DNA from: Deltaproteobacteria bacterium
GTDB taxonomy: Bacteria; Desulfobacterota; Binatia; UBA9968
Reading direction: 5' to 3'
Assembly (NCBI GenBank): GCA_021323355.1
Contig: JAJONK010000001.1
Span: 1 to 33,068 of the forward strand
DNA length: 33,068 bases
Below are positions 5,258 through 30,813 of this stretch, piece by piece. The translations under genes and the position numbers were made by a program. Below the pieces are notes generated by a model. That model was not told the origin of the DNA, made no database searches, and was given only the letters and a program-made list of their open reading frames with translations. Position 1 is the first letter of the stretch. The number at the start of each line of letters is the position of its first letter.

Positions 5258-6013
5258 CTACCACTTCTCTAAAATAACAACCGGATACCCCGCTTGTGTC
5301 ACCCGTCGCGCTTGTTCTTCGGCACTGGACCGGGTAGAAAATTGTCCGAGTTGGACACGATAAAACGTGCTCGTACTGGTGTTCAATGGGACAATGGCGA
5401 CGTCCGAAAACGTCGATGCGACCCGGTCGCGCAGCTGGCGAGCATTCTCGAGTACTGAAAACGAGCCTAGCTGAAGCGTGTAGTCGAGCGAATCTTTAAT
5501 CAAGGATATTTTGTCAGCGCCGCTACCGACCACTTCGATCCGCACCGGGATGGTTCCGGGACCAATCATGCCGAGTGTTTCCGCCGCCGCATAGGATAAA
5601 TCTATAATTCTTTCCTTCGCGAAGGGTCCACGATCGTTGATCAGAACTTCTATGGCTCTGCCATTCTCTAAGTTGGTTACCAGCACTCGAGTGCCGAGAG
5701 GCAATGTTTGATGCGCCGCCGTGAGGTCGTGTTGGTTATATATAACGCCGCTGGCAGTAGGCTTGCCGTGAAAACCGGGCCCATACCATGAGGCGATGCC
5801 GGTTTGACTGACGCGCGGCGCGGTTACAGGAGGAGGGATTCGCGAGGCCGGCAAGGAACATGCTGCCACGCCGATGACTATTACCGACAGGAGATGAAGC
5901 TTTAAATCAGAGATCGGCTTCAAGTTACCCACTCCAGGCAAGCCGTCAGGATCGATGTTTATCGAATCCCTGGCGCCAGCACATCGAACCGGAGTCCAGG
6001 TCGACATGCCCAA
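5258..6013 (-). CDS. rlpA: Septal ring lytic transglycosylase RlpA family lipoprotein (DPBB domain plus C-terminal SPOR domain)
   Basis: The RlpA double-psi beta-barrel core is present (GIASWYGPGFHGKPTASGVIYNQHDLTAAHQTLPLGTRVLVTNLENGRAIEVLINDRGPF). The C-terminus is SPOR-like (YTLQLGSFSVLENARQLRDRV...YRVQLGQFSTRSSAEEQARRV). A lipobox (IGVAAC) is present. The true start is probably the in-frame TTG at 5923 (giving MKPISDLKLHLLSVIVIGVAAC) or the GTG at 5932, rather than the ATG at 6013. Confidence 0.9.
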   Translation of the reverse strand: MGMSTWTPVRCAGARDSINIDPDGLPGVGNLKPISDLKLHLLSVIVIGVAACSLPASRIPPPVTAPRVSQTGIASWYGPGFHGKPTASGVIYNQHDLTAAHQTLPLGTRVLVTNLENGRAIEVLINDRGPFAKERIIDLSYAAAETLGMIGPGTIPVRIEVVGSGADKISLIKDSLDYTLQLGSFSVLENARQLRDRVASTFSDVAIVPLNTSTSTFYRVQLGQFSTRSSAEEQARRVTQAGYPVVILEKW

Positions 6014-6021
6014 ATCATCGA

Positions 6022-6588
6022 TTAACCTAGCAACGCTTCCATCCTGTAGGCCCCCTGCTGCCGATCCGGCGCAGGAATTCTTTTTTTTGCGCTTATCAGA
6101 CTACCGAATACGGCATCGGCTAGCGGTAAAACAACATTGAGGTTGTTCAGGTGCCGTTTGTGATGCATATGATGATGCGCGTCAAGCCAGCGAAACCACC
6201 GAGTTTGCTCGAGGCGCCGCCCCATGGGAATGTGCATGCAGTAGTGCAGATACTCGTAAAGCGCATAATAAACCGCCATGGCCGCGCACGCGCCGGCGAG
6301 TATGGGCGCGCCTACAAGGTGCTGTATAAGGAGTATTGCAGGAACGTGAAGAGCGATGATCAGCGGTGCGTTCCACCAAGCGAAGCGAACCTTTCTCATA
6401 TATTTCTTATCCGACAGAAAATAGTCGGTTCCCGTGCGAAAGAGACCATGATGAACCAATGCATGAGCCCGAAATGGATACTTCCAGCGCGGCTGATGCA
6501 TGAGGTACTTGTGTAAAGTCCATTCGAAAAAGCTGCCATACACGAAAAAGGCCGCGAACGCGGTGAGTTCGCTAATGTAAAATGACAT
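6022..6588 (-). CDS. Fatty acid hydroxylase / sterol desaturase superfamily integral membrane protein
   Basis: The 188 aa hydrophobic protein carries the di-iron histidine boxes of the family: HKYLMH, HALVHH, HYCMH and HHHMHH. Confidence 0.8.
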   Translation of the reverse strand: MSFYISELTAFAAFFVYGSFFEWTLHKYLMHQPRWKYPFRAHALVHHGLFRTGTDYFLSDKKYMRKVRFAWWNAPLIIALHVPAILLIQHLVGAPILAGACAAMAVYYALYEYLHYCMHIPMGRRLEQTRWFRWLDAHHHMHHKRHLNNLNVVLPLADAVFGSLISAKKRIPAPDRQQGAYRMEALLG

Positions 6589-8161: not shown

Positions 8162-8755
8162 GTGATCGCTCAAATCAGCGGCACTCTGGCGCAGAAGGTT
8201 GCAGGAGAAATCGTCGTCGATGTCGGTGGAGTCGGTTATCAGGTCTTCATCCCGCTCAATGTGTTTTATCATCTGCCGGAGATCGGCGCGCCGGTCCGGC
8301 TGCATATTCACACTCACTTGCGCGAGGATGCCCTACAGCTTTTCGGCTTCCAGGAGCCGGCGGAAAAACAAGTTTTCTTGCAACTCAACGGCGTTGCCGG
8401 CATCGGACCTAAACTTGCGCTGAACATTTTGTCGGGAATCCCCGCCGATGAACTCACCCGTGCAATCAAGGGAGGCGATCAGTTGCGCTTGGTATCGATC
8501 CCTGGCGTAGGCAAGAAACTTGCCGAGCGCATGATCGTTGAGCTTCGTGATCGCTTTGCGCTTCTCGAATCTCAAGCCACAGAAACTCCTGCGCAAGGGC
8601 GCGACCCGCAGCTGCTCCAAGACGCTGTTTCGGCTCTCGTTAATCTGGGCTATCGTAAAGTGGAAGTTGAAAAGAACGTGCGTGACTGCGTTCAAGCGGG
8701 CAATCACAGTCTTGAGCAGGTGATTAAAGAAGTACTTCGGCGCATGAGTCGCTGA
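8162..8755 (+). CDS. ruvA: Holliday junction branch migration complex subunit RuvA
   Basis: The gene has a GTG start. The product begins MIAQISGTL...[14 protein letters not shown] (OB domain) and contains the HhH motifs [15 protein letters not shown] and [16 protein letters not shown]. Confidence 0.95.
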
Positions 8756-8763
8756 CACTGATC

Positions 8764-9837
8764 ATGGCCCACTCACCCATCATCGATTCGGACAAATCCT
8801 TGGAGACGCGGGAGATCTCGCCGGCGCGAAGCGATGAGGATTTAAACTACGAGGTAAATCTGCGGCCCCGTGGATTCGAGGAATACGTCGGCCAAGATCG
8901 CGTCAAAGAAAACCTTAAAGTAGCCATCGAGGCAGCCCGCGGTCGTGGCGAGGTTCTAGACCACCTTTTGTTCCATGGCCCGCCAGGACTAGGAAAAACA
9001 TCCCTGGCCTACATCATCGCCCGTGAGATGGGCGTCAATATCAAAGGGACTTCAGGGCCGGTTATCGAGCGTGCCGGTGATCTGGCGGCGATTCTCACCA
9101 ATTTGGAGGAAGGCGATATCTTGTTCATCGATGAAATTCATCGCCTCAACCATATTGTCGAAGAGGTTCTATATCCCGCCATGGAAGATTTTCAAATCGA
9201 TATCATGATTGGACAAGGTCCGGCGGCCCGATCCATCAAGCTTGAGTTGAAGCCATTTACTTTGATTGGCGCAACGACAAGATCAGGTCTGCTGACCTCG
9301 CCGCTCCGCGATCGTTTCGGCCTGAGCTTCCGGTTAGATTTTTATTCACCGGAAACCCTTACTGATCTTCTCCAGCGCTCAGCTGTTATTCTCGGCGTGG
9401 CTGGCGAACAGGACGGAATCGCCGAGATCGCGCGGCGGTCGCGCGGCACACCACGAATCGCCAACCGCCTGCTACGCCGTGTGCGCGACTATGCGCAGGT
9501 CAAAGCAGCCGGACGGATTACGCTCGCGGTGACGGTCGAGGCGTTACAGATGTTGGAGGTTGACTCCATCGGCCTCGATAAAATGGATACCATGTTGCTA
9601 TTGACCCTGATCGAAAAGTTCTCCGGAGGACCGGTTGGAATCGAGACTCTGGCAGCGGCCATTGGCGAAGAAAAAGACACCATTGAAGATGTCTATGAGC
9701 CATTTCTGATTCAGGCGGGTTTCATCCAGCGAACGCCTAGAGGGCGGATGGCGACGCCGTTGGCTTACAATCACTTCGGCCAAAAACCTAAGGGACAAAA
9801 GGGCAGTGCTCCCAAGAACCAACCTACTTTGTTTTGA
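8764..9837 (+). CDS. ruvB: Holliday junction branch migration DNA helicase RuvB
   Basis: [12 protein letters not shown], Walker [12 protein letters not shown], Walker [10 protein letters not shown], sensor motifs and the [15 protein letters not shown] winged-helix region are all present. Confidence 0.97.
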
Positions 9838-9883
9838 AGTAGCAACGACCTGAAATCCTCCCCAACCAGCGGGATCGAACCCT

Positions 9884-10096
9884 ATGCCTGAGTTCGGTAG
9901 AACTTTGATCATTCTGGGGATCGCAATTATCGCCGTCGGAGTACTGTTTACATTGGGTGGAAAAATCCCTTGGCTCGGGCATTTGCCGGGTGATATCTAC
10001 GTCCAGCGAGGTCGCTTCAGTTTTTATTTTCCAATCACCACGTGCATTGTTATCAGCATCCTCATCAGCCTTGTTCTCTATCTCTTTAGGAGATAA
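9884..10096 (+). CDS. DUF2905 family small membrane protein
   Basis: The 70 aa product has two TM segments and the characteristic LPGDIYVQRGRFSFYFPITTCIVIS motif. Confidence 0.8.
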   Translation: MPEFGRTLIILGIAIIAVGVLFTLGGKIPWLGHLPGDIYVQRGRFSFYFPITTCIVISILISLVLYLFRR

Positions 10097-10104
10097 AATT
10101 CTGC

Positions 10105-12366
10105 TTGCATTTTAGTCTCTTAGCAAGTGCCATGGGCAAAACCTCCAAAACCCAACAGCAGATCAGCGACACGCCCACGTTGGATGAAACTAAACGGCGA
10201 AAGCGTGAAGGGCTGGCGATTCTTATCACTTCGCTGGTGGTGCTGGCGTTCGCATTCTTCGAGGTGCAGCTTCCCGATGTTTCGTCGGAATATTCTCTCA
10301 GCAATAACATTGTTTTCTTTCTCCTAATCAACATCAACATCATTCTTCTGATTCTCCTGGTTTTTCTGGTCGTCAGAAACCTGGTGAAGCTGGTGTTCGA
10401 ACGCAAACGGCGGATCCTGGGCTCACGGCTGAGAGTTCGCCTGGTGATTGCATTTGTCGGCCTGTCGCTGATTCCGACACTGTTGCTGTTCGTCATTGCC
10501 GGGGGATTCGTCACCCGCTCCTTTGAAAGATGGTTCGATATACAGGTCGAGACCGCGCTTCAGGGATCTTTGGAAATCGGCCAGACCTATTATCAAAACT
10601 CGGCAAACAACGCGCTTTTCTATGCACGGCAGCTAAGCCGGCGCGTCACTGAACAGGGGCTGTTCGAGACCGGACGGCGGAGCGATCTTAAAGAATTTAT
10701 CCAGATCAAGCAGCGTGAGTACAATCTCGGCACAGTGGAATTATTTTCACCAGATCACCTGCCGGTAGTAGTGGCTTTCAACGACCAGGTACCCACTGGA
10801 GTTAGCATCAAAGCTGAAGCCGATTTCCTTAACCGGGCGCTGCGCGGCCTGGAAGTCACCCGAACTCAGGCTTTTGGCGAGGGCGACGTTATTCGCGGCG
10901 GTGTTCCGATCTATGACAGCGGCAAGCGGATTCAGGGAGTCGTCGTAGTCGATTATTACGTGCCGAAGAGCATCACCAAACGCGCGCTTGAAATCTCCCG
11001 GTCCTATGAGCAGTACAAACACCTTGGTTTTCTGAAGAACCCGGTGAAAAACAGTTACATTCTGACCCTGCTATTAATTACCCTGGTGATTATTTTCGCC
11101 GCGACTTGGTTCGGCCTTTATCTTGCCAAAGGAATCACGATCCCGATTCAGCAGGTGGCAGCGGGGACTCACGAAGTCGCTCATGGCAACTGGGATTATC
11201 AAATTGAGGCGGCCGGCGATGACGAGTTAGGAACCTTGGTTGAGTCTTTCAACCAGATGACCCGAGACTTAAAGAAGAGCAACCTGGAATTGTTGCGCCG
11301 CGGCAAGTTCGTTGAAACACTTCTCGCTAATATTACCGCAGGAGTGATTGCTGTCGATTCAAATGGGAAGATCACTTCCTGGAACAAGGCGGCCGAACAA
11401 ATGTTAGGTGTGGATGGTTCTGCTGCTCTCGGAAAATACTACAGGGAAGCGTTTGAAACCGAGCCGCTAATGGTCATGCGCGACTTGATTGACAACCTCA
11501 AAGATCGCGAAAGCAGCGAGACTGAATTGCAGATACAGCTACCGGACCATCTCCTTACCGTATTCGCGACCGCCGCTACCCTCAGAGATGATGCTAATGA
11601 TAGCTTAGGTATTATGATTTTTCTCGAAGACATTACCCAGATTCAAAAAGTACAGAGGATGGAAGCGTGGCGCGAAGTGGCGCGGCGAATCGCTCACGAA
11701 ATCAAAAATCCGCTTACGCCGATACAGCTCTCGGCCGAGAGACTGCGCAAACGCTATGCTAAACTGTTGCAGGGGGACGGCGCGGTACTGGATAAATGCA
11801 CGACGACGATTATCCAGCAGGTGGTCGAGCTCAAGAATCTGGTGAATGAGTTTTCGCAATTCGCAAGACTACCTACGGCTCAGCCGGTGCCCAACGACCT
11901 AAACGTGATTGTTCAGGACGCGCTATTCCTGTTTAAGGAAGGACATAACCATATCGATTTTGAATTCCGGCAGGGAGAGTTGCCGGCGTTGGAGCTCGAT
12001 CGGGAGCAAATCAAACGGGTAATGATTAACTTATTAGACAACGCCGTGGCCGCCGTTGGCGATGGCGGCCATGTGCAGATAGCGACTGCCTATGATCGCA
12101 CTCGGAACACTGTCTACCTTGAAGTTGCCGACGATGGTTGCGGCATGGCGGCAGAAGCTCGAGTTAGAATATTTGAGCCTGGATTTTCCACTAAAAAACA
12201 GGGTACCGGCCTGGGGCTAACCATCGTCAATCAAATTGTCGAAGATCATCGCGGTTATATTCGGGTGCGGAACAACGAACCGCGCGGCACCAGGTTCGTG
12301 ATAGAGTTTCCGGTGCGGGAGCAGGGCGCGCTACACGAGTTTAAAAGGAAGGCTGCGCAGCTATGA
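10105..12366 (+). CDS. Membrane sensor histidine kinase with NtrY-like architecture (4 TM segments with a roughly 180 aa periplasmic loop, then HAMP, PAS, HisKA and HATPase_c)
   Basis: Hydrophobic segments lie at about aa 37-54, 68-90, 110-136 and 318-341. A HAMP domain follows TM4. A PAS-like region is present (LLANITAGVIAVDSNGKITSWNKAAEQMLG). The H-box is EVARRIAHEIKNPLTPIQLSAERL, with the His codon at 11695-11697. The N box is NLLDNAV, and the G boxes are DDGCGM and GTGLGLTIV. ATG 10132 is a plausible alternative start. Confidence 0.9.
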   Translation: MHFSLLASAMGKTSKTQQQISDTPTLDETKRRKREGLAILITSLVVLAFAFFEVQLPDVSSEYSLSNNIVFFLLININIILLILLVFLVVRNLVKLVFERKRRILGSRLRVRLVIAFVGLSLIPTLLLFVIAGGFVTRSFERWFDIQVETALQGSLEIGQTYYQNSANNALFYARQLSRRVTEQGLFETGRRSDLKEFIQIKQREYNLGTVELFSPDHLPVVVAFNDQVPTGVSIKAEADFLNRALRGLEVTRTQAFGEGDVIRGGVPIYDSGKRIQGVVVVDYYVPKSITKRALEISRSYEQYKHLGFLKNPVKNSYILTLLLITLVIIFAATWFGLYLAKGITIPIQQVAAGTHEVAHGNWDYQIEAAGDDELGTLVESFNQMTRDLKKSNLELLRRGKFVETLLANITAGVIAVDSNGKITSWNKAAEQMLGVDGSAALGKYYREAFETEPLMVMRDLIDNLKDRESSETELQIQLPDHLLTVFATAATLRDDANDSLGIMIFLEDITQIQKVQRMEAWREVARRIAHEIKNPLTPIQLSAERLRKRYAKLLQGDGAVLDKCTTTIIQQVVELKNLVNEFSQFARLPTAQPVPNDLNVIVQDALFLFKEGHNHIDFEFRQGELPALELDREQIKRVMINLLDNAVAAVGDGGHVQIATAYDRTRNTVYLEVADDGCGMAAEARVRIFEPGFSTKKQGTGLGLTIVNQIVEDHRGYIRVRNNEPRGTRFVIEFPVREQGALHEFKRKAAQL

Positions 12367-13682
12367 AAAATGGAGGGGCGGTGAAGGAGTTATCATCTCA
12401 GAAAACCATCCTTGTTGTCGATGATGAGGACAAGGTTCGGGAGTCGGTTAAAGAAGTGCTGACGGACGAGGGATATCGGGTACTCGATACCGCGGATGCC
12501 ACTTGCGTCCTGGAAATGATCGAAGCGGAGCAACCTGGGCTTGTGCTGCTCGACATCTGGATGCCGAAAATCGATGGTATTGGCTTGCTCAAGGAGATCA
12601 AGAGCAAGAAGCCTTCAACCAATGTAGTGATGATCTCCGGGCACGGCAATATCCACACGGCGGTGACTGCAACTAAATTTGGCGCTTTCGATTTTATCGA
12701 AAAGCCGGTCTCGCTCGACGGCCTGCTTCATACCGTGCAACGCGCCCTGGGCGAGCTCCCTGTACCTCAGAGCCTCTCCGAAATCGGCCAGCGCCATGGG
12801 GCCGAGGACACCGACACAGTGAGTACAGCTTTGCGGATAGTCACATCCGCCGAATCGATTCGACAAAAGACCTTAAGAAAAAGCGTGGTGAGTTCAGGTC
12901 AAGGATTGCATTCAGGTATTAAAACAGGATTGATTCTGCATCCGCTCCCGCCAAATAGCGGCATCCTATTCGAGGGTATCTCAGGTGATGTCAGCGTACC
13001 TGCGCATTTAGATTATGTCGGATCAACGGGATTCGCGACATCATTGAGCCATCGCGGTTTTACGGTTGCGACCGTAGAGCATTTTTTGGCGGTCCTCCAT
13101 AGTTACGGAATTACGAACTTGCTAGTGAAAGTTCAAGGCGAGGTTCCGATCTTGGATGGATCGGCGGCGGAGTTTTGCGAACTCATCGAGGAAGCTGGGC
13201 TGCACGAGCAAGACGAAAGCTGGTCGAGAATCGTCATTGATCGTCCTTATCGCATCGGTGACGACGGAGGAGAATGGATTAGTATTGAACCAGCGGAGAC
13301 GTTTTCGGTCCACTACGTTCTGAAGTATCCGAAACCGGTCGGCGTGCAGGAATACATATTCACACATCAGAGTCCGACTTCGTTCAAAGAAGAAATTGCG
13401 CCGGCAAGGACCTTCGGTTTTCTGCGCGATATGGAGAAGATGCAAAAGCTCGGCTTGATCAACGGAGGCAAGCTTAGTAATTGTATCTTGATCGATGATG
13501 AGAAAATCGTAAACACGGACTTGCGCTTTCCGGAGGAACTGGCGCGTCATAAAATTCTTGACATTATCGGGGATTTTTATCTGCTGGGAAGACCCATCCG
13601 CGGCAAAATCACGGCTCACATGACCGGCCATTCCGATAACATTGCATTACTTAAAGCTGTTCGAACCGGCCTGGGACTATAA
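12363..13682 (+). CDS. lpxC: Response-regulator receiver domain fused to UDP-3-O-acyl-N-acetylglucosamine deacetylase (REC::LpxC), 439 aa
   Basis: This is a single uninterrupted ORF whose ATG overlaps the kinase stop (ATGA at 12363-12366). Residues 14-129 form an NtrC/NtrX-type receiver (VVDDED, VLLDIWMP, VVMISGH, AFDFIEKP). Residues 166-439 align end-to-end with LpxC (IRQKTLRKSVVSSGQGLHSG, TVEHFLAVL, ILDGSA, RTFGFLRD, RHKILDIIGD, TGHSDN). Confidence 0.9.
   Translation: MKNGGAVKELSSQKTILVVDDEDKVRESVKEVLTDEGYRVLDTADATCVLEMIEAEQPGLVLLDIWMPKIDGIGLLKEIKSKKPSTNVVMISGHGNIHTAVTATKFGAFDFIEKPVSLDGLLHTVQRALGELPVPQSLSEIGQRHGAEDTDTVSTALRIVTSAESIRQKTLRKSVVSSGQGLHSGIKTGLILHPLPPNSGILFEGISGDVSVPAHLDYVGSTGFATSLSHRGFTVATVEHFLAVLHSYGITNLLVKVQGEVPILDGSAAEFCELIEEAGLHEQDESWSRIVIDRPYRIGDDGGEWISIEPAETFSVHYVLKYPKPVGVQEYIFTHQSPTSFKEEIAPARTFGFLRDMEKMQKLGLINGGKLSNCILIDDEKIVNTDLRFPEELARHKILDIIGDFYLLGRPIRGKITAHMTGHSDNIALLKAVRTGLGL
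12402..12749 (+). other. Receiver (REC) domain module of the fusion protein
   Basis: The acidic pair D20/D21 is present. The predicted phospho-acceptor is D64 (GAC at 12552-12554 in VLLDIWMP). S92 and K114 occupy the conserved T/S and K positions. Confidence 0.85.
12858..13679 (+). other. LpxC deacetylase module of the fusion protein
   Basis: Counterparts of E. coli LpxC E78/H79 (E239/H240, with H240 at 13080-13082), T191/F192 (T350/F351), H238/K239/D242/D246 (H396/K397/D400/D404) and H265 (H423) are all present. Confidence 0.85.
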
Positions 13683-13696
13683 CTTCTCTCGTTAAA

Positions 13697-14167
13697 GTGC
13701 CGACTGCCAAAGTGGGTATGGATTCATCTTCGCCTTATTCCAGATTGTTCACGATCAACGAAGCGAACGCCCTTTTGCCCATAGTGCGTCCGACGATCGA
13801 ACGCATTCTGGAGATCATACGGCGCCTGCGCGCCAAGAGCGAAATAGTGATTCGCGCGGAGCAGATCGACCCGGAAACGCCCAACCTGATGCGCCGTTTA
13901 CAGCAGAACGATGAGATCGCAGCCTTGATCAAGCAGATCAACGACGCTGTCAATGAGATTCAACAACATGGCTGCGTGTGCAAAGGCGTGGAACAAGGAT
14001 TGCTCGATTTTCCCTGTTTATTGGGAGAAGAGATTGTCTTTCTTTGTTGGCAATACGGCGAACCTGAGATTGCTTACTGGCACAGAATTGAGGACGGCTT
14101 TGCCGGTAGACGCCCATTGTTGGACCCCACTGTCACCGGATCGAGCGGCGGCGGTCCGCTTCACTGA
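13697..14167 (+). CDS. DUF2203 domain-containing protein
   Basis: The family pattern is present: FTINEANALLPIVRP, a helical stretch, then GLLDFPCLLGEEIVFLCWQYGEPEIAYWHRIEDGFAGRRPL. The start is either GTG 13697 or ATG 13718. Confidence 0.75.
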   Translation: MPTAKVGMDSSSPYSRLFTINEANALLPIVRPTIERILEIIRRLRAKSEIVIRAEQIDPETPNLMRRLQQNDEIAALIKQINDAVNEIQQHGCVCKGVEQGLLDFPCLLGEEIVFLCWQYGEPEIAYWHRIEDGFAGRRPLLDPTVTGSSGGGPLH

Positions 14168-14233
14168 GCCTCGCCAAATTGGGCTCTCCAGTTGTAGTTC
14201 CGCGTCAATCTAATTCCGGAGTTTTCTGGCCTT

Positions 14234-15403
14234 ATGATTTCCACCGCTGAGCCGAATTTGGCCGAGCTGTCTCAGCGCATCAAGAATGAAGCGCAAAGGC
14301 TCGGCTTTGAACTTGTTGGAATCTCTCCAGTGCGGCTGCCGCCGCACGAGCAGTCGTTCGCCGATTGGCTGCGAAAAAAATTTCACGGTGATCTCGATTA
14401 TATGGAGCGAACCGAGCTTTTGCGGCGCGATCCAAGGCTGCTTGTCCCCTGGGCGGTGTCAATCATTTCCGTGGGAATGAACTACTACACGCCGTTTAAA
14501 CGGCCAACCCCGTCAGAACGCGGGCGCGGCTGGATCTCGCGCTATGCTTGGGGTGATGATTATCATGAGATTATTCGGGACAAACTGGAAGCCTTGCTCG
14601 TATTTCTTCGTGAGATTGGCGGCGAGACGGTGGAAGGCAGAACCTTCGTTGATTCCGCGCCGATTCTGGAACGGGACTTTGCGGGGACTGCCGGCATAGG
14701 ATGGCTCGGGAAAAATACCCAGCTGATTTCGCCGAAAAAAGGGTCCTGGTTTTTCCTTGGTGAGCTGTTTACCAGTCTGCCCCTTGCTTATGATCAGGCC
14801 ATTCGCGACCGCTGCGGTCAATGTGACTTGTGCCTAAAAGCCTGCCCAACCGGCGCCTTCATCGGACCCTATCTGTTGGATGCGCGTCGCTGCATCTCCT
14901 ACCTTACGATTGAGCTCAAGGGTTTTATTCCACGTCATCTGAGACCCCTTGTCGGTAATCACATTTTCGGCTGCGACATCTGCCAGGAAGTCTGTCCTTA
15001 TAATGTTAAAGCGAATTCCACCGATGAACCGTCTTATTTGCCGCGCCAAGGGCTTTATGCGCCGGATTTGATTGCGCTACTGTCGATCGACCAAGAGGAA
15101 TTTCGCCGGCGGTTTCGCGGCAGTCCCATTGTCCGGGCAAAACGACGTGGATTTTTGCGCAATGTAGCCGTGGCGCTTGGCAATAATGGCGGGCCTGAAG
15201 CCGTGCCGGCGCTGACCAAGGCACTGAATGACGAAGAGCCACTAGTTCGCGGTCATGTCGCATGGGCGCTGGGCCGGATTGGTACATCTGAGGCGCTCGC
15301 GACACTGCGGCAGAAATTGCTTTCAGAAGCTAACCCGGAGGTTAAAAGCGAGATTGAGGAGGCTCTTCGTGAGGCCAGTGAATCTGTCCCTGATCACTTA
15401 TAG
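14234..15403 (+). CDS. queG: tRNA epoxyqueuosine(34) reductase QueG
   Basis: GWLGKNTQLISPKKGSWFFLGE is present, as are two 4Fe-4S ferredoxin motifs (CGQCDLCLKACP and CDICQEVCP) and a C-terminal HEAT-like repeat region (EEPLVRGHVAWALGRIG). Confidence 0.92.
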   Translation: MISTAEPNLAELSQRIKNEAQRLGFELVGISPVRLPPHEQSFADWLRKKFHGDLDYMERTELLRRDPRLLVPWAVSIISVGMNYYTPFKRPTPSERGRGWISRYAWGDDYHEIIRDKLEALLVFLREIGGETVEGRTFVDSAPILERDFAGTAGIGWLGKNTQLISPKKGSWFFLGELFTSLPLAYDQAIRDRCGQCDLCLKACPTGAFIGPYLLDARRCISYLTIELKGFIPRHLRPLVGNHIFGCDICQEVCPYNVKANSTDEPSYLPRQGLYAPDLIALLSIDQEEFRRRFRGSPIVRAKRRGFLRNVAVALGNNGGPEAVPALTKALNDEEPLVRGHVAWALGRIGTSEALATLRQKLLSEANPEVKSEIEEALREASESVPDHL

Positions 15404-15451
15404 GATGCGTCATCCATAATAAGAATAAGCATCAATAAGCAGCATCATTTT

Positions 15452-15895
15452 TCAAGCAGTTTCTTCGGGTGGGCAAAGCATGACTTTGAGCGCCTTCATC
15501 AGCTCCTCCTCAATTCTCATGATCCTGCCCTGACCATCGACACAGGCGTGCTTGGTCGAGCCGGAGGCCAGCAGCGTGGCTTCAGCCTCGCGCATGATTC
15601 GGTAGGTGAATGTCAATGATGCGCGGCTGATCGAAGCTATTCGTGTCTCGATGACAATCAGATCATCGTAACGCGCTGGTCTGAAGTATCGGCATGACAG
15701 CTCCGCAACTGGAAAATGCATGCCCCGTCGCTCGATGGTTGCGTACGGAATTCCGCTTGCACGCAGAAACTCACCGCGGCCTCTCTCGAACCAGCGTAGG
15801 TAGTTGGCGTAGTAGACCACGCCCATTTGATCGGTATCACCATAGATGACTCGATAGGTTGTCACATTTAAATCGTTTCGTTTGCTCGAACTCAT
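15452..15895 (-). CDS. Acyl-CoA thioesterase, YbgC/FadM (4HBT hot-dog) family
   Basis: The product is 147 aa and carries the hallmark sequence YRVIYGDTDQMGVVYYANYLRWFERGRGEFLR. Confidence 0.9.
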   Translation of the reverse strand: MSSSKRNDLNVTTYRVIYGDTDQMGVVYYANYLRWFERGRGEFLRASGIPYATIERRGMHFPVAELSCRYFRPARYDDLIVIETRIASISRASLTFTYRIMREAEATLLASGSTKHACVDGQGRIMRIEEELMKALKVMLCPPEETA

Positions 15896-18689: not shown

Positions 18690-19727
18690 ATGCCGAAAAT
18701 CGCAGTCGACGCGATGGGGGGAGATCATGCCCCGGCGGTTGTTGTTGAGGGTGCGCTGCTTGCGGCCCAAGACGTCGATGCGGAATTGATTCTTGTCGGG
18801 GACAAACTCGCCGTTGAACAAGAATGTTTGCGCATCGGCGGCAAGCTCCCCCGTTTTCCAATTATTAACGCCACACAAACGGTATCTATGGACGAATCCC
18901 CCAGCGTTGCGCTGAGGAAGAGAGATTCGTCGATGAAGGTCGCGTTCGAGATGATCAAGCGCGGCGAGGCGGAAGCCGTGGTCAGCGCCGGAAACTCGGG
19001 GGCCATGATGGCCATCGGGATGCTGGTCATCGGCACGTTACCTCAAGTCACTCGACCCGCGATTCTAGCCATTGTCCCCGGAACATCTAAGGGAACCATC
19101 ATCATCGATGCCGGAGCCAATGTCGACTGCAAGCCGCGCCAGTTACTACAGTTTGGGATCATCGGGTCGGTGTACGCAGAGCGTGGGTTGGGTATCGTCA
19201 ATCCCCGAGTCGGTGTGCTAAGCAACGGCGAGGAAGACAGCAAAGGGAACGAGTTGACCCGAGCGGCCAGCGAGCTTCTCGACAGCGCGCCGGTAAACTA
19301 TGTCGGATACGTCGAAGGCCGGGACTTTTTCAACGGTAAGGTCGATGTCATCGTGTGCGATGGCTTTACAGGAAACGTGGCACTGAAGACCATGGAAGGG
19401 GTAGCGAGCTTTGCCGGCGAAATTTTAAAAAGCGGCTTTGAGAAAAGCTGGTTGAGCCGCTTGGGCTATTTGCTGACCCGACACTCGCTGCGGCATGCCT
19501 ATCGAAAGCTTGATTACGCCGAATACGGCGGAGCACGGTTGCTGGGATTGGATGGGGTCGCCATTGTCGCCCATGGAGGGTCAACTGCGCTGGCAATCAA
19601 AAACGCCATTCGCGTTGCCAGTGAATCAGTTTCACAGAATGTAAACGGTCACATTAGCGCGGCTTTGGAATCCATGGCTCAGGCCGCAACTGAAAACAAA
19701 ACTTTGCTGACTACGATCCGGCCTTGA
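18690..19727 (+). CDS. plsX: Phosphate acyltransferase PlsX
   Basis: The product begins MPKIAVDAMGGDHAP and contains VSAGNSGA, CDGFTGNVALKTMEG and IVAHGGS. Confidence 0.95.
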   Translation: MPKIAVDAMGGDHAPAVVVEGALLAAQDVDAELILVGDKLAVEQECLRIGGKLPRFPIINATQTVSMDESPSVALRKRDSSMKVAFEMIKRGEAEAVVSAGNSGAMMAIGMLVIGTLPQVTRPAILAIVPGTSKGTIIIDAGANVDCKPRQLLQFGIIGSVYAERGLGIVNPRVGVLSNGEEDSKGNELTRAASELLDSAPVNYVGYVEGRDFFNGKVDVIVCDGFTGNVALKTMEGVASFAGEILKSGFEKSWLSRLGYLLTRHSLRHAYRKLDYAEYGGARLLGLDGVAIVAHGGSTALAIKNAIRVASESVSQNVNGHISAALESMAQAATENKTLLTTIRP

Positions 19728-20716
19728 TCGAGTCATGCGATCGGGCCAACTGCAGAGCGAAAGAAACTGAAGTGGCGATTACAGACAATGTGGCATTTCT
19801 TTTTCCCGGCCAAGGTTCCCAGTACGTCGGTATGGGCAAAGATTTGTGCGAGCACTATCCAGTTGCCGCGCAAACTTTGGAAGAGGCCGAACAGACCCTC
19901 GGATTTTCACTCAGCCAGCTATGTTTTCACGGCCCGGAAGCCGATCTTCAACTCACTGAGAACACACAGCCGGCCATTCTGGCTGTCTCGGTAGCCGCGC
20001 TCCGCGTTTTGCAATCGGAAACCGCGGTTAAACCGGCTTATGTGGCGGGTCATAGCCTCGGCGAATACAGCGCGCTGGTGTGCGTCGGCGCGCTCTCGTT
20101 CAGCGACGCCCTAAGGATCGTGCGAGAGCGCGGTCGTTTGATGCAGGCGGCTGTGCCATCGGGGAACGGCGCAATGGCGGTTATAATGGGTCTCGACGTG
20201 GCAGCGGTCAGCTCTATCTGTAAACAGGCAGAGGACGGGGAAGTGGTCGCACCGGCCAATTATAATGGGGGTGGTCAAATTGTGATCGCCGGCTCCAAAG
20301 CTGCCGTAGTCCGCGCAATGCTTCGTGCCAGGTCTGACGGCGCAAAGCGTGTTATCGAGCTGCCGGTCAGCGCGCCATTTCATTGTCCATTGATGAAGTC
20401 GGCGGCAGAAGGATTGAAACGTATTCTGAACGATGTGACGATTCGTCCATTCACAGTCGGAGTTATCAGCAACGTAAACGCCGAGGTGAATCTTGATGCT
20501 GCCAGGATCAAGCTATTGCTAGCGGAGCAGGCGATGAGACCGGTACGTTGGGAAGAGTCCGTCAAGAGATTGGAGAGTCTCGGCATCTCTAAAATGCTTG
20601 AAGTCGGTCCTGGAAGAGTTCTAAAAGGATTGGTGAAGCGGATCAGCCCGAAAATAGAGGTTGATACGTTCGAAGCACCGCAAGACCTTGCCCGCTTAAG
20701 GAATGACATCAAATGA
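19724..20716 (+). CDS. fabD: ACP S-malonyltransferase FabD
   Basis: FLFPGQGSQYVGMG is present, as are the active-site GHSLGEYSAL and the QPAI and APFH motifs. The start is either TTG 19724 (overlapping the plsX stop) or, perhaps more likely, GTG 19772 (giving MAITDNVAFLFPGQGSQ). Confidence 0.95.
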   Translation: MIESCDRANCRAKETEVAITDNVAFLFPGQGSQYVGMGKDLCEHYPVAAQTLEEAEQTLGFSLSQLCFHGPEADLQLTENTQPAILAVSVAALRVLQSETAVKPAYVAGHSLGEYSALVCVGALSFSDALRIVRERGRLMQAAVPSGNGAMAVIMGLDVAAVSSICKQAEDGEVVAPANYNGGGQIVIAGSKAAVVRAMLRARSDGAKRVIELPVSAPFHCPLMKSAAEGLKRILNDVTIRPFTVGVISNVNAEVNLDAARIKLLLAEQAMRPVRWEESVKRLESLGISKMLEVGPGRVLKGLVKRISPKIEVDTFEAPQDLARLRNDIK

Positions 20717-21456
20717 AATTGAACGGGCAAGTCGCTCTGGTGACAGGCGCAAGTCGCGGCATTGGTCGGGCTATCGCCGTGGCTCTCGGTCAAGCGGGAG
20801 CATACGTGGTGATTAATTACCGTGGCAATCAAGAGGCTGCTGAGTCGGCGCTCGAAGAGCTTCACGGCGCCGGTGGCCAAGGGGAACTTTGCCGATTCGA
20901 TGTCGCAATCGAAACTGCTGTTGATGCGGCTGTCAAGAAAATCGTTGACGCACAAGGGAAAGTTGATATTCTGGTCAATAATGCCGGGGTGACCTCGGAT
21001 ACTCTTCTAATTCGCTCAAAGGCCCAAGATTGGGATCAGGTCATAGGGACTAATCTCAGGGGTACGGTTCTCTGTACCAAATCGGTTTGCCGTGCCATGA
21101 TCCGCCAGCGTTATGGTAGGATCGTTAATCTTTCTTCGGTAGTTGGACAGACCGGCAACGTCGGACAATCAATCTACGCGGCAACAAAGGCGGGGATCCT
21201 CGGGTTTACCAAATCAATCGCGCGGGAACTTGCGTCGCGCGGGATCACTGTGAACGCCGTGGCTCCGGGCTTTATTGAAACCGAGATGACCGCTAATTTA
21301 TCGCCGCAACTGCAGGAGGAGTTTCTTCGCTCGATTCCCTTGGGCAGGTTTGGCAGGAGCGAGGAAGTGGCGCAACTGGTGGTGTTTCTCACGGGACCGG
21401 GAGCAGCCTATATTACTGGGCAAGTGATGAATGTTAATGGCGGACTTTACATGTAG
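20713..21456 (+). CDS. fabG: 3-oxoacyl-ACP reductase FabG
   Basis: The ATG overlaps the fabD stop (ATGA). The SDR motifs [17 protein letters not shown] and YAATKAG are present, and the C-terminus reads [12 protein letters not shown]. Confidence 0.95.
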
Positions 21457-22351: not shown

Positions 22352-23605
22352 ATGTCTTTTCTGCAGCAAACCGACAGCGAAGTTTTTGCCTCGATCCAAA
22401 AAGAAACCAACAGGCTCGAACAGAATTTGGAGCTGATCGCGTCTGAGAACGTCGTCAGCGAAGCGGTGTTGGAAGCTCAGGGCTGCGTGATGACTAACAA
22501 GTACGCAGAAGGGTATCCAGGCAAGCGCTATTACGGCGGCTGTGAATTTGTCGATGAGGTCGAATCTCTGGCCATAGCCAGGGCCCGAGAACTCTTCGGC
22601 GCCGATCATGCAAACGTGCAGCCTCATTCCGGCAGCCAAGCTAATATGACCGTGTATCTGTCCGTGCTTAAGCCGGGCGATTGTTATCTCGGGATGAATC
22701 TTGCGCATGGCGGTCATCTATCGATGGGCAGCCCAGTCAATTTTTCCGGAATCCTGTACCGTGTCATCCCCTACGGGGTCTCAGAAAAAACTGAAACCAT
22801 CGACTATGATGAAGTGGCCAAACTCGCGCGCGAACACCGGCCGAAACTGATCATTGCCGGCGCTAGCGCCTATCCGCGAATCATAGACTTTGCTAAATTT
22901 CGTCAAATTGCAGATGAGGTGGGAGCGGTTTTGATGGTGGACATGGCGCATATCGCCGGCTTGGTTGCAGCGGGTGTGCATCCTAGCCCAGTCCCTTATG
23001 CTGACTTTGTAACCACCACGACTCACAAAACTCTACGAGGCCCTCGTGGAGGAATGGTCTTGTGCCGTGCCGCTCATGCCAAAACAATCGACAGCAAAGT
23101 CTTTCCCGGCATGCAAGGCGGTCCCTTGATGCACGTAATCGCTGCGAAAGCCGTGGCGCTGAAAGAGGCGCTCGATCCAGGGTTCAGGATCTATCAACAG
23201 CAAATTGTAAAGAACGCTCAAGCCCTGGCGAAATCTCTCAGTTCGAACGGCTACCGCCTTACCTCGGGGGGGACCGACAATCATCTGATGCTGGTGGATC
23301 TGCGGAAATCTGAGCTGACAGGCAAAGCGGCACAGGAGACTCTCGATCGGGCGCACATTACGGTTAACCGCAACGCGGTGCCATTCGATACCCGGTCCCC
23401 GTTTATCACCAGCGGAATTCGCATCGGTACGCCCGCCGTCACGAGTCGTGGCATGAAGGAGGAGGAAATGGCTCTGATCGGCGATTTGATTGCCAGGGCG
23501 CTCGACCATGTGAGCGATGAAAACGTTTTAAGCGAGGTTGCTAAGCAGGTGGCCGCGCTGTGCAGAAAGTTTCCAGTTTATCCGCACCGGCTTCCGTCAA
23601 ATTGA
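22352..23605 (+). CDS. glyA: Serine hydroxymethyltransferase
   Basis: [21 protein letters not shown] and [15 protein letters not shown] (PLP lysine) are present. The ATG at 22352 immediately follows the TTG used by the ORF track. Confidence 0.97.
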
Positions 23606-23729
23606 CCTGATCGGTATAGTCAACCTATCAATCCCGCCAACCTCACAGGATTTACTCTGCGGTCCTGCGATAATCTATTGCCTGGTTTACATAAGTGAAC
23701 TAGCTGGCTGTGCTCGAAGGAACAATCGG

Positions 23730-24233
23730 ATGAAATGCCCCTTTTGTCATGAGACCGAGAACCGCGTCATCGATTCGCGCTTGAGCAAGGATAGCAATAT
23801 GATCCGGCGCCGGCGCGAGTGCTCCAAGTGCTCGCGCCGATTCACCACTTATGAACGGGTCGAAGAGATGATGCCATTGGTGGTGAAAAAAGATGGTCGT
23901 CGGGAGACTTACGAGAGGATCAAAATAATCAATGGGCTTAAACGGGCCTGTGAGAAGCGGCCCGTTAGCATCAATACCATCGAAGCCATTGCCGATCGGA
24001 TCGAGCGAAGCCTTCAGGAACGCGGGGAAAAAGAAATATTGAGCTCGGTGATCGGCGAGGCGACGATGCGAGAACTTCACGACACCGATGAGGTGGCTTA
24101 CGTTCGGTTCGCCTCAGTGTACCGCTCATTCAAAGATATCAACGAGTTCATGGTGGAGTTGGAGGAGCTTCTCAAGGAACGAAAAGAAATATCCGCGGCT
24201 CGAGTAAGCGCTTCGCGACAGAAAAGGAGTTAG
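23730..24233 (+). CDS. nrdR: Transcriptional repressor NrdR (zinc ribbon plus ATP-cone)
   Basis: The start is trimmed to ATG 23730, giving [18 protein letters not shown]...[17 protein letters not shown]. An ATP-cone follows ([16 protein letters not shown]...AYVRFASVY). Confidence 0.95.
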
Positions 24234-24236
24234 CGG

Positions 24237-25367
24237 GTGCGGCTGCGACGCGAAGAGCAACTTGATCGGCTCTATATGCGGATGGCCTGCCGCCTTGCTG
24301 CGAAAGCCGCCGGAAGGACCAGCCCCAACCCTATGGTCGGCGCGGTGCTGCTGCGCGATGGGAAAATGATCGCATCTGGTTTTCACCAATTTGCCGGCGG
24401 CGACCACGCCGAGATCGTTGCGCTCAAAAAGGCCGGCACCAAGGCTAAAGGGGCCACACTCTATATCAATCTCGAACCATGCAATCATTACGGTAGAACA
24501 CCGCCATGCACCCGGGCTTTGATCGCTGCAGGGGTCAAGGAAGTGGTTGTCGGCATGAAGGACCCTAATCCGGTGATATCCGGTAAAGGACTGCGCGCGC
24601 TCGCCCGGGGGGGCATCAAAGTTCGCACTGGTGTTCTCGAAGAAGAATGTCGAACACTGAACGAGGCATTTACCAAGTTCATCACTCGCGGAGTGCCGTT
24701 TGTTGCGCTCAAGCTGGCGGCGTCACTCGACGGAAAGATTGCGACGGCGAGCGGAGATGCCCGTTGGATTAGCTGCGAAGAATCTCGCGCCACCGTGCAT
24801 CGCTTGCGCGATAGTTATGATGCGGTGCTGGTGGGAGCGGGCACGGTGATTACCGACAATCCGCAATTGACTTGCCGTATGGCGGGAGGACGAGATCCCT
24901 GGAGGATCATCCTTGATGCGCGTTTACGAATTCCTCTTGACGCCGAGTTTTTGCGCCAGCGCAGCAGCGATAAAAACATCATTGTGACAAGCGATACCGC
25001 CCCCGCAGGTAAGATTCGCGCGCTGGAAAATTTGGGCGCAACGGTTTGGCGGATGCCTGCGCGCGAAGGAGCGGTGCGGTGGCTTCCGCTGCTGAGAAAA
25101 CTGGCCAAAACCGGCATTGCCAGCGTGCTTATTGAAGGCGGGGCAACCACCGCTGCCGGCGCTTTGAAAGAGAAGATGGTAGACAAAATGCTGCTTTTCT
25201 ATGCCCCAAAACTTCTGGGTGGCGACGGGCGTTACATGATCGACAGCTTGGGAGTCGGACATATCAAGCAATCTGTCATGCTTCAAAATCTGACAATTCA
25301 GAAATCAGGCGCCGACTTACTGGTTTCAGGATACCTTGAAACGAGCGGGGCTGGCCGATTGCGCTAA
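24237..25367 (+). CDS. ribD: Bifunctional diaminohydroxyphosphoribosylaminopyrimidine deaminase / 5-amino-6-(5-phosphoribosylamino)uracil reductase
   Basis: SPNPMVGAVL is present, with the deaminase zinc motifs HAE and LEPCNHYGRTPPC, and a reductase domain containing SLDGKIA. The gene starts 3 nt after the nrdR stop. Confidence 0.95.
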   Translation: MRLRREEQLDRLYMRMACRLAAKAAGRTSPNPMVGAVLLRDGKMIASGFHQFAGGDHAEIVALKKAGTKAKGATLYINLEPCNHYGRTPPCTRALIAAGVKEVVVGMKDPNPVISGKGLRALARGGIKVRTGVLEEECRTLNEAFTKFITRGVPFVALKLAASLDGKIATASGDARWISCEESRATVHRLRDSYDAVLVGAGTVITDNPQLTCRMAGGRDPWRIILDARLRIPLDAEFLRQRSSDKNIIVTSDTAPAGKIRALENLGATVWRMPAREGAVRWLPLLRKLAKTGIASVLIEGGATTAAGALKEKMVDKMLLFYAPKLLGGDGRYMIDSLGVGHIKQSVMLQNLTIQKSGADLLVSGYLETSGAGRLR

Positions 25368-25388
25368 GCCGGAAGGTTCGCCTGCATC

Positions 25389-25994
25389 ATGTTTACCGGT
25401 CTGATCGAAGATGTCGGACGCGTCGCTAGCTTAGTGCTCAGTAAGCAGTCAGCGGTTTTGACTGTGGAATCAAGTTTGGCGCTTCGGGAGATCCCATTGG
25501 GCGCCAGCATCGCCGTCAACGGCGCATGCTTAACGGTCGTTCAAAAAGGCAAAAGGACAGTGGCCTTTGACGTTTCGCCGGAGACATTGGAGCGCACCAG
25601 TTTAGCTACCGTCGAACCTGGCACACTGCTCAATCTCGAACGTTCGATGCGGCTCGAGGATCGGCTGGGCGGGCATTTGGTTACCGGCCACATAGACGGC
25701 GTCGGGATTGTGTATTCGGTCGAAAAAAAAGGAGACTTCACGTTTTTTTCCTTCCGGCTTGCACAACGTTTGGGATCACTGCTGGTCTCCAAAGGGTCGG
25801 TTGCCGTTGATGGAATCAGCTTGACTGTGAACCGATGCAGCGCCCGAAGGTTCAGCGTCGCGATTATCCCATTTACTTTGCAAAACACTAATTTGCGCGC
25901 CCTTAGGGTTGGTGATAAAGTCAATGTCGAAACAGATCTGATCGGCAAGTACGTTCGTCACTTCGTTAACCAACGAACTAAAAATCAGCTTTAA
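25389..25994 (+). CDS. ribE: Riboflavin synthase (alpha chain)
   Basis: MFTGLIEDVG is present, with the duplicated lumazine-binding repeat (GASIAVNGACLTV and GSVAVDGISLTV) and GHLVTGHIDG. Confidence 0.95.
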   Translation: MFTGLIEDVGRVASLVLSKQSAVLTVESSLALREIPLGASIAVNGACLTVVQKGKRTVAFDVSPETLERTSLATVEPGTLLNLERSMRLEDRLGGHLVTGHIDGVGIVYSVEKKGDFTFFSFRLAQRLGSLLVSKGSVAVDGISLTVNRCSARRFSVAIIPFTLQNTNLRALRVGDKVNVETDLIGKYVRHFVNQRTKNQL

Positions 25995-26019
25995 CGCTCG
26001 ACGCCATTTAGGTACCACC

Positions 26020-27246: not shown

Positions 27247-27252
27247 CCTTTT

Positions 27253-27723
27253 ATGGCCAGAGTCATCGAAGGCACTGTTAATGCGCGCGGCATGAAAATC
27301 GGCGTCATTGTCAGCCGATTCAATAATTTTATTACCGTCAAGCTTCTCCAAGGCGCATTGGAAGGTCTGAAGACTCATGGCGGCGCGGATGATGATCTGA
27401 CGGTGGTTCATGTGCCGGGAGCGTTTGAAATTCCCATCGTCGCGGCAAGGATGTCAGCCAGCGGAAAATTTGATGCACTCGTGTGTCTGGGTGCCGTGAT
27501 TCGAGGCGATACGCCGCATTTCGAGTATGTCTGCGATGCTGTAACCCATGGAATTAGCAAGGCCGTTTGGGAATACCACATCCCGATCAGTTTCGGCGTT
27601 CTGACAACCGAGAACGTGCAACAGGCAATGGAACGCTCCGGAGTGAAGGATGCGAACAAAGGATATGAAGCCGCTTTGACTGCCATTGAGATGGTAAACG
27701 TGCTGCGCCAGCTTGCTCGATAA
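27253..27723 (+). CDS. ribH: 6,7-dimethyl-8-ribityllumazine synthase
   Basis: IGVIVSRFN, VPGAFEIP, LGAVIRGDTPHFEYV and FGVLTTE are present. Confidence 0.95.
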   Translation: MARVIEGTVNARGMKIGVIVSRFNNFITVKLLQGALEGLKTHGGADDDLTVVHVPGAFEIPIVAARMSASGKFDALVCLGAVIRGDTPHFEYVCDAVTHGISKAVWEYHIPISFGVLTTENVQQAMERSGVKDANKGYEAALTAIEMVNVLRQLAR

Positions 27724-28211: not shown

Positions 28212-28215
28212 CAGC

Positions 28216-30810: not shown

Positions 30811-30813
30811 GGC

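Follow-up and report, generated by a model that had tools for sequence, protein, structure and literature searches.

In a 33,068-nt stretch of genome from a Deltaproteobacteria bacterium of the Binatia (assembly GCA_021323355.1, contig JAJONK010000001.1, positions 1-33,068; hereafter the window), two open reading frames on the same strand fill positions 10105-13682 (+). The first encodes an NtrY-like sensor histidine kinase and the second a protein in which a phospho-receiver domain (REC) is joined to LpxC, the enzyme that commits cells to lipid A synthesis; we refer to this fusion as REC::LpxC (Table 1). The stop codon of the kinase gene overlaps the start codon of the fusion gene in an ATGA, which suggests that the two genes are translationally coupled and belong to one operon. 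A scan of positions 8600-15600 found no terminator-like site above chance between them; promoter and terminator counts over this region equalled the shuffled expectation, and the scan was hence uninformative.

The kinase has the architecture by which NtrY proteins are recognised, with a multi-transmembrane NtrY_N region, a periplasmic domain, HAMP, PAS, HisKA and HATPase_c. All of its Pfam matches (NtrY_N at residues 39-170, HAMP at 341-390, PAS at 402-510, HisKA at 522-589 and HATPase_c at 632-738) were above the gathering threshold, including NtrY_N with 36.6 bits against a cutoff of 23.2. Hydropathy analysis gave four transmembrane (TM) segments at approximately residues 38-56, 68-93, 112-137 and 318-341, and because the segments have positively charged flanks, we predict an N-in topology. 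The long periplasmic loop predicted between TM3 and TM4 gave a weak match to dCache_3 (residues 147-282, E 0.009), and the periplasmic domain of NtrY and PlrS has been described as a PDC domain (PMC13001219). The catalytic motifs are intact, comprising the H-box histidine H531, the asparagine at position H+4 (N535) and the N, G1 and G2 boxes. In PlrS, the H+4 asparagine is needed for phosphatase activity (PMC13001219). The start of the kinase is ambiguous, since translation could begin at TTG 10105, which has an AGGAG about 12 nt upstream within the last codons of the preceding DUF2905 gene, or at ATG 10132, where the alignments of most homologues start. An earlier note on this DNA, made from the sequence alone, had proposed the NtrY layout, a periplasmic loop of about 180 residues and the ATGA overlap, and our analysis agrees with it on all three, including the coordinates of the loop.

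Searches with profile hidden Markov models (HMMs) confirmed the two-domain architecture of REC::LpxC, with Response_reg (PF00072; E 1e-30, 106 bits against a cutoff of 30) followed by LpxC (PF03331; E 4e-83). The receiver has the acidic pair D20/D21, the phospho-acceptor D64 (GAC, 12552-12554), S92 and K114. Its best match among solved structures was Brucella NtrX (5m7n, also 4d6x) and its best NCBIfam match was likewise NtrX, which bears out the reading of an NtrX-type receiver with D64 as its acceptor. The NtrX equivalog model NF051870 scored 132 bits, below its cutoff of 600, and was still the top-scoring regulator model. The window protein does not have the REC, AAA+ (without GAFTGA) and helix-turn-helix (HTH) layout of NtrX and consists only of REC and then LpxC. 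Judged by its sequence, it is a derivative of the NtrX family, not an NtrX.

The LpxC part scored 254.3 bits against the TIGR00325 lpxC equivalog (cutoff 187.25) and covered positions 1-266 of the 268 in the PF03331 profile. The zinc ligands H240, H396 and D400 and the catalytic residues E239 and H423 are present together with T350, F351, K397 and D404, and these residues align to the motifs TVEHLL, ARTFGF, HKILDAIGD and SGH of P. aeruginosa LpxC. The protein thus appears to carry a full-length LpxC with intact catalytic residues in the place of AAA+ and HTH, as had been claimed. About 16 residues follow the GH motif, and a long C-terminal tail is absent. We rejected an LpxC-FabZ type fusion (NF009667), which matched only at model positions 3-225 of 464 (205 bits, cutoff 465); no C-terminal FabZ dehydratase domain was found in REC::LpxC. 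In an AlphaFold2 model of the window protein (mean predicted local distance difference test score (pLDDT) 86), both domains were folded confidently, the receiver with a pLDDT of about 90. The LpxC part resembled A. aeolicus LpxC with a target-normalised template-modelling score of 0.94-0.95 and a root mean square deviation of 1.6 A, and LpxC chains alone were among the 50 matches listed in a structure search with the REC::LpxC model. The order of receiver, flexible linker and catalytic domain is that of CheB-type regulators. Across 38 proteins of this two-domain short form, the linker was 23-61 residues long (median 34) and poorly conserved.

The fusion is no artefact, and it is widespread. 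Both Pfam domains are present in an identical protein and in over 119 clusters of relatives (72-98% identity) from NCBI, JGI, ENA and Logan assemblies, and PF00072 and PF03331 were found together in all of the best 120 clusters (clustered at 90% identity). A profile built from distant members returned 120 further clusters, all of them two-domain, and since their scores were nearly flat (583-595 bits), many more fusion clusters must exist. Altogether the fusion was found in hundreds of 90%-identity clusters and in about 58 species genomes, mostly Binatia. The latter figure comes from a genome scan with one genome per species, which returned 80 loci that were examined together with flanks of at most 10 kb to the left and right; about 58 of these held a short fusion at 50-97% identity, in genomes labelled Candidatus Binatia, 'Deltaproteobacteria' or a few probably mis-binned taxa. 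The fusion was seen in almost all of the Binatia-type genomes recovered. Large fusion-bearing contigs include ERZ25067264 ctg836501 (2.33 Mb), CAVUVW010000013.1 (1.97 Mb) and CAVSHR010000004.1 (1.65 Mb). We could reject a misassembly or frameshift in the linker, raised in the earlier note as a way in which REC and LpxC might prove to be separate genes: many independent assemblies encode proteins of identical length, and almost all of the approximately 58 genomes have an unbroken frame. The frame is broken at five loci (L005, L060, L070, L073 and L074) in long-read metagenome-assembled genomes, mostly MFD-prefixed, and these breaks are probably indel or assembly errors, not gene fission.

Residue conservation was assessed in an alignment of 74 fusions, which included the longer relatives described below and extended down to 33% identity. 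In LpxC, E239, H240, F351, H396, K397, D400, D404 and H423 were invariant and T350 was present in 73 of the 74. In the receiver, D21 was kept in 73, D64 in 72, S/T92 in all 74 and K114 in 73. On this conservation we rejected the possibility of a pseudo-receiver, and, as far as their sequences can tell, both ends of the fusion look functional. Between distant groups, the LpxC domain was more conserved than either the receiver or the kinase.

At the remaining loci of the 80, the match was to the LpxC part only (51-62% identity). Contrary to the expected stand-alone genes, LpxC at these loci is the end of a single open reading frame of 690-770 aa that opens with a receiver. The Pfam architecture of these long forms (NtrX::LpxC) is Response_reg, Sigma54_activat, AAA_lid_14, in some HTH_8, and LpxC, and their best NCBIfam model was NtrX, matched near full length (346 bits for L059 and 268 for L077, cutoff 600). 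Some of the long forms are named 'NtrX' by JGI and LpxC by NCBI. A search seeded by one long-form protein returned at least 120 clusters with this architecture; their named sources were Nitrospinota (including the closed genome of Candidatus Nitrohelix vancouverensis, CP048620.1, with a long form at 3,170,512-3,172,710), Candidatus Schekmanbacteria, Candidatus Tectomicrobia, Desulfomonile sp. and 'Deltaproteobacteria'. Overall, long forms occur in Nitrospinota, Thermodesulfobacteriota, Tectomicrobia and Schekmanbacteria. Among 1.84 billion 50%-identity representatives, which were searched exhaustively, there were at least 20 clusters of the short form (410-483 aa, reaching down to 33% identity), at least 15 of the long form (650-736 aa) and at least two intermediates. 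The intermediates, P0125 (505 aa) and P0131 (491 aa), have the order REC-HTH_8-LpxC, in which AAA+ is gone and the Fis-type HTH is kept, and each is closest to a long-form protein. GAFTGA was absent from all 31 long or intermediate forms; Walker A was usually kept, and the Walker B DE had changed to D followed by S, R or G. Because GAFTGA and the Walker B glutamate are missing, the AAA+ domain of the long forms would be unable to activate sigma-54 and is probably no working ATPase.

In a tree of LpxC domains, the fused proteins stood apart from about 60 stand-alone representatives, and within the fused group the three forms were interleaved, with short and intermediate forms nested among long ones. 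Two representatives of stand-alone length, P0195 and P0216, fell within the fused clade. When nearest neighbours were determined for REC and LpxC separately, both domains paired P0131 with the long form P0142 and both paired P0140 with P0128; the nearest relatives of the fusion at locus L057 and of P0125 were long forms. This gives the window protein a family context that the earlier reading lacked: as its sequence relationships have it, REC::LpxC descends, in reduced form, from an NtrX::LpxC family with the order REC-AAA+-HTH-LpxC. There were probably several losses of AAA+, followed by HTH, during which REC and LpxC remained linked; the number of these losses is provisional. NtrX proteins of beta-proteobacteria have lost AAA+ as well (PMC13001219). 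Relatives of the window protein may have a transcriptional arm, as the long forms keep AAA+ and often HTH.

An NtrY-like kinase, at 43-99% identity to that of the window, is encoded directly upstream of the fusion at 69 of the 77 informative loci (51/58 for short forms and 18/19 for long forms). The co-occurrence that the earlier note had wondered about is therefore the rule without being universal, the exceptions being the orphan fusions that we take up below. In five long-form loci, the kinase gene is itself preceded by a gene for a DUF4390 (PlrP-like) periplasmic protein; this count is five of 18 long-form loci with a crude HMM built from four sequences, which may miss divergent copies. We did not find a DUF4390 gene in the window, where a DUF2905 gene occupies that place. 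Some NtrYX systems are marked by a DUF4390 gene located 5' of the kinase gene, whose product, PlrP, restrains the phosphatase activity of the kinase (PMC13001219), and the presence of such a gene at the five loci ties the REC/NtrX::LpxC module to the NtrYX family. Going by gene order, it also extends the PlrP-NtrY association beyond the beta-, gamma- and zeta-proteobacteria and Magnetococcia of PMC13001219.

We consider it probable, with some reservation, that the two genes constitute a signalling module in which the phosphorylation state of D64 sets the level of active LpxC without a transcriptional step. In the proposed scheme, the NtrY-type membrane kinase/phosphatase would sense a periplasmic or envelope cue and set how far the receiver is phosphorylated at D64, and this state would control the amount of active LpxC after translation. 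That the kinase phosphorylates the receiver, and that phosphorylation alters LpxC output, we infer from the gene and domain arrangement. The case for a direct action on LpxC is strengthened because the phospho-residues are kept in 72-74 of 74 proteins with a kinase adjacent in 69 of 77 loci, and because the REC-LpxC linkage has outlived several apparently independent losses of AAA+ and HTH. Since the linker, with about 30 residues, is disordered and variable, a tethered switch or phosphorylation-driven dimerisation is favoured. The most likely, if weakly supported, physical mechanism would be a tethered-domain switch like that of CheB: in one phosphorylation state the receiver would restrain LpxC or hold it as an inactive monomer, and in the other LpxC would be released, or dimerised via the alpha4-beta5-alpha5 face.

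Several observations weigh against this scheme. The acceptor aspartate has been replaced in two lineages, by Asn in P0140 and by Ser in P0151. Both of these proteins keep an intact LpxC and may be natural 'locked' variants. Fusions at L047-L051, L057 and L081 and in Candidatus Nitrohelix have no adjacent kinase; at L047-L051 the gene lies between the rimP-nusA-infB genes and rho, and in the closed Candidatus Nitrohelix genome it follows greA and trmB. These orphan fusions retain the acceptor aspartate, and a kinase encoded elsewhere or acetyl phosphate must therefore act on them. In Caulobacter, NtrY is mainly a phosphatase, with the phosphate on NtrX coming from elsewhere, so the direction from kinase to receiver is not to be taken for granted, and the window kinase, too, may chiefly remove phosphate. 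The predicted template-modelling score of the AlphaFold2 models was 0.83 for the window protein and 0.69 for the 49%-identical homologue P0134; the two models disagree on whether REC and LpxC dock, no reproducible docked arrangement emerged, and CheB-like occlusion draws no structural support from them. Finally, the LpxC tree is a neighbour-joining tree with no support values, which weakens the polarity from long to short forms.

A serious alternative, although on balance we judge it unlikely, is that phosphorylation acts on the stability or location of LpxC and not on its catalysis. The receiver would then be a switchable degron or adaptor, as in RssB and CpdR, or would dock LpxC on the kinase, and the signal would set LpxC abundance or membrane proximity, replacing the FtsH/LapB proteolysis of enterobacteria. 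LpxC is classically under proteolytic control, and E. coli LpxC reportedly, going by the title of a reference, has an FtsH degron at its C-terminal end, to be set beside the approximately 16 residues past the GH motif of the fusion. A non-allosteric mechanism would suit both the flexible linker and the failure of the models to dock reproducibly, and Ght of N. meningitidis has been proposed to act by localising LpxC (PMC12444477). However, no protease or adaptor gene is among the conserved neighbours of the module, and the sequence holds nothing that would separate control of stability or location from allosteric control.

It is also unlikely, in our estimate, that the fusion is an accessory, conditional LpxC paralogue that adds lipid A capacity in cells with a stand-alone housekeeping lpxC elsewhere. 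The position of the stand-alone-length P0195 and P0216 within the fused clade speaks for such a paralogue. The LpxC domain, however, is above the TIGR00325 equivalog cutoff and is the most conserved part of the module between distant groups, the gene sits in a housekeeping neighbourhood (ruvCAB, queG, plsX-fabD-fabG, leuS-lptE), and almost all Binatia-type species genomes that were recovered carry the fusion.

We give little credence to the idea that the receiver is a leftover of a decayed ntrX-lpxC fusion, with LpxC constitutive and REC securing co-expression with the kinase or serving as a phosphate sink. The AAA+ module is visibly decaying in the long forms, the acceptor aspartate has been lost in two lineages and some fusions have no neighbouring kinase, but D20/D21, D64, S/T92 and K114 would not be kept in 72-74 of 74 proteins at 33-100% identity if the domain were decaying, nor would it survive several independent losses of AAA+ and HTH; in the models, moreover, the receiver folds at a pLDDT of about 90. 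That LpxC is the input, a 'trigger enzyme' that reports its occupancy by UDP-3-O-acyl-GlcNAc substrate or product to the receiver or the kinase and thereby tunes NtrY signalling to another regulator or, in long forms, to the attached HTH, is highly improbable: long forms do keep HTH_8 beside LpxC, and NtrX regulates many alphaproteobacterial envelope genes, but the short forms, which have no DNA-binding or other output domain, are the most abundant, and the full conservation of the catalytic residues points to selection for catalysis and not for ligand binding alone.

The preferred reading, a phosphorylation switch acting directly on LpxC, has parallels in several known systems. Like CheB and other regulators with enzymatic output (PleD and WspR with GGDEF, RpfG with HD-GYP), REC::LpxC begins with its receiver, which a flexible linker connects to the catalytic domain at the C-terminus. 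CheB is inhibited by its receiver as long as the latter is unphosphorylated, whereas for REC::LpxC a docked inhibitory state was not reproducibly predicted in our models. The closest relatives are NtrY/NtrX of R. sphaeroides, C. crescentus and Brucella, which share with the module the kinase architecture from NtrY_N and the periplasmic loop through HAMP, PAS and HisKA to HATPase_c, and a receiver that is closest to NtrX; the long forms, without GAFTGA, match the NtrX model over nearly their full length. Unlike the window protein, which lacks AAA+ and HTH and has LpxC covalently joined to its receiver, known NtrX works on DNA and controls lpxC indirectly within a large regulon. In R. sphaeroides, where lpxC has no NtrX site, deletion of ntrYX raises lpxC mRNA about 9-fold and lipopolysaccharide (LPS) about 2-fold, and NtrYX of C. 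crescentus also represses lpxC (PMC7240162, PMC12444477). The rise of lpxC mRNA upon loss of ntrYX provides independent literature support for a link between NtrYX and LpxC, and by analogy with this repression in alphaproteobacteria, we suggest that the module may act as a brake on lipid A synthesis.

In Bordetella, PlrS, PlrR and PlrP resemble the long-form loci with a DUF4390 gene 5' of the kinase, and the beta-proteobacterial NtrX proteins without AAA+ parallel the REC-HTH-LpxC intermediates (PMC13001219). PlrR differs from the fusion in being a DNA-binding regulator with no enzyme attached, and the PlrP-PlrS-PlrR cluster differs from the window, which has DUF2905 and not DUF4390 upstream of the kinase. 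DVU2931-DVU2934 of Desulfovibrio vulgaris is, like the module, a 'deltaproteobacterial' two-component system dedicated to lpxC, its response regulator DVU2934 having lpxC as its single mapped target (PMC3333781), but it exerts transcriptional control through a separate regulator protein. FtsH/LapB (YciM) in E. coli and Lon in some alphaproteobacteria also set the LpxC level and the balance of LPS and phospholipid (PMC12444477), although by degradation, whereas the fusion has an N-terminal phospho-receiver and a short C-terminal end. LpxC-FabZ (NF009667) is, like REC::LpxC, a natural LpxC fusion, with the difference that its partner is a C-terminal FabZ, which provides metabolic coupling instead of a signalling domain. 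Proteolysis by FtsH/LapB and possibly Lon, localisation, and indirect effects of NtrYX and ChvGI on transcription are the modes of control given in a 2025 review of lipid A regulation, in which neither a fusion nor a response regulator that acts on LpxC itself is mentioned (PMC12444477). We found a receiver-LpxC or NtrX-LpxC fusion described nowhere in the searchable literature, which leaves subscription journals largely uncovered, and NCBIfam has no model for it. Within this scope the novelty claimed for the fusion stands: enzymatic-output regulators, control of the lpxC transcript by NtrYX and natural LpxC fusions were known already, and what is new is the joining of a receiver or NtrX to LpxC.

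The genes around the module form a housekeeping stretch. Aconitase, an RlpA-like protein, YebC, ruvCAB and DUF2905 genes precede the kinase; REC::LpxC, DUF2203 and queG are followed by genes for a thioesterase, an HtrA-like protease, yceD and plsX-fabD-fabG, and the window further holds rpiB, glyA, nrdR, rib genes, nusB, leuS and lptE. The DUF2905 gene, between ruvB and the kinase gene, has the same position in close relatives and in L085; by this gene order it would be conserved context of the kinase/REC::LpxC module and may be part of it. The DUF2203 gene lies 15 nt past REC::LpxC. The order RuvB, kinase, REC::LpxC, DUF2203, QueG is kept in L001-L038, in others and in L085; the DUF2203 neighbour is confined to the core Binatia group and is missing beside more distant fusions. 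No second lpxC was found within the 33-kb window. The genes plsX-fabD-fabG (18690-21456), which concern fatty acids and phospholipids, follow the module at a distance of about 5 kb, and a leuS-lptE pair, of which lptE belongs to LPS assembly, stands at the end of the window (28093-31437). The presence of LptE in the window shows that the organism makes and exports LPS and that its outer membrane contains LPS. Genes for an RlpA-like lytic transglycosylase (DPBB_1 and SPOR) and a fatty acid hydroxylase family protein, both envelope-related, adjoin each other upstream of the ruv cluster (5258-6588, minus strand). Rfam and tRNA scans found no Rfam family and no tRNA in the whole window, and no FMN riboswitch was detected at the Rfam gathering threshold in the nrdR-ribD-ribE-ribBA-ribH-nusB cluster (23538-27723).

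Table 1. Features of the kinase/REC::LpxC module in the window and of related loci (prefix L).
Feature	Position (nt)	Strand	Details and basis
DUF2905 small membrane protein, between ruvB and kinase	9884..10096	+	70 aa; Pfam DUF2905 E 3e-24
NtrY-like sensor histidine kinase	10105..12366	+	753 aa; Pfam domains, intact motifs
Predicted periplasmic sensor loop of kinase	10516..11055	+	aa 138-317, TM3-TM4, ~180 aa; hydropathy, charged flanks
Cytoplasmic signalling/catalytic part of kinase	11125..12318	+	Pfam coordinates
HAMP	11125-11274	+	Pfam
PAS	11308-11634	+	Pfam
HisKA	11668-11871	+	Pfam; phospho-His H531 at 11695-11697
HATPase_c	11998-12318	+	Pfam
Stop/start overlap ATGA, kinase to regulator	12363..12366	+	read from sequence
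REC::LpxC fusion	12363..13682	+	439 aa; Pfam, NCBIfam
REC domain, NtrX type	12408..12737	+	aa 16-125; Pfam Response_reg
Flexible linker	12759..12848	+	aa 133-162; pLDDT <50 in AlphaFold2 model
LpxC (UDP-3-O-acyl-GlcNAc deacetylase) domain	12864..13661	+	aa 168-433; Pfam LpxC
DUF2203 protein, directly 3' of REC::LpxC	13697..14167	+	Pfam DUF2203 E 2e-36
Long-form examples	L059:7222-9531, L077:8825-10918, L064:8630-10825, others		Pfam
DUF4390 genes	L059:4497-5024, L075:5619-6410, L077:5697-6404, L079:5506-6192, L062:256-864		immediately 5' of NtrY-like kinase
Orphan fusions	L047:9899-11329, L048-L051, L057, L081:2524-3894, L084:8001-10199		no NtrY-like kinase nearby

How cells set LpxC activity is an active question, and with a conserved, multi-phylum REC::LpxC, LPS synthesis would be switched directly at the post-translational level. 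The fusion would also indicate an old and specific connection, so far poorly understood, between NtrYX and the cell envelope. The series REC-AAA+-HTH-LpxC, REC-HTH-LpxC and REC-LpxC is in effect a natural dissection of which parts matter, and although the hosts are mostly uncultured, the hypothesis is open to testing with recombinant proteins. More tentatively, and with considerable doubt, we propose that the NtrYX family is at its root a lipid A control system and that the sole LpxC of Binatia is switched directly by aspartyl phosphorylation from an envelope-sensing kinase. Such a switch would be a third mode of LPS homeostasis beside proteolysis and transcription. If so, the NtrX::LpxC and REC::LpxC fusions are 'Rosetta stone' evidence for the lipid A root of NtrYX, and this root would explain the envelope and lpxC phenotypes of proteobacterial NtrYX mutants.

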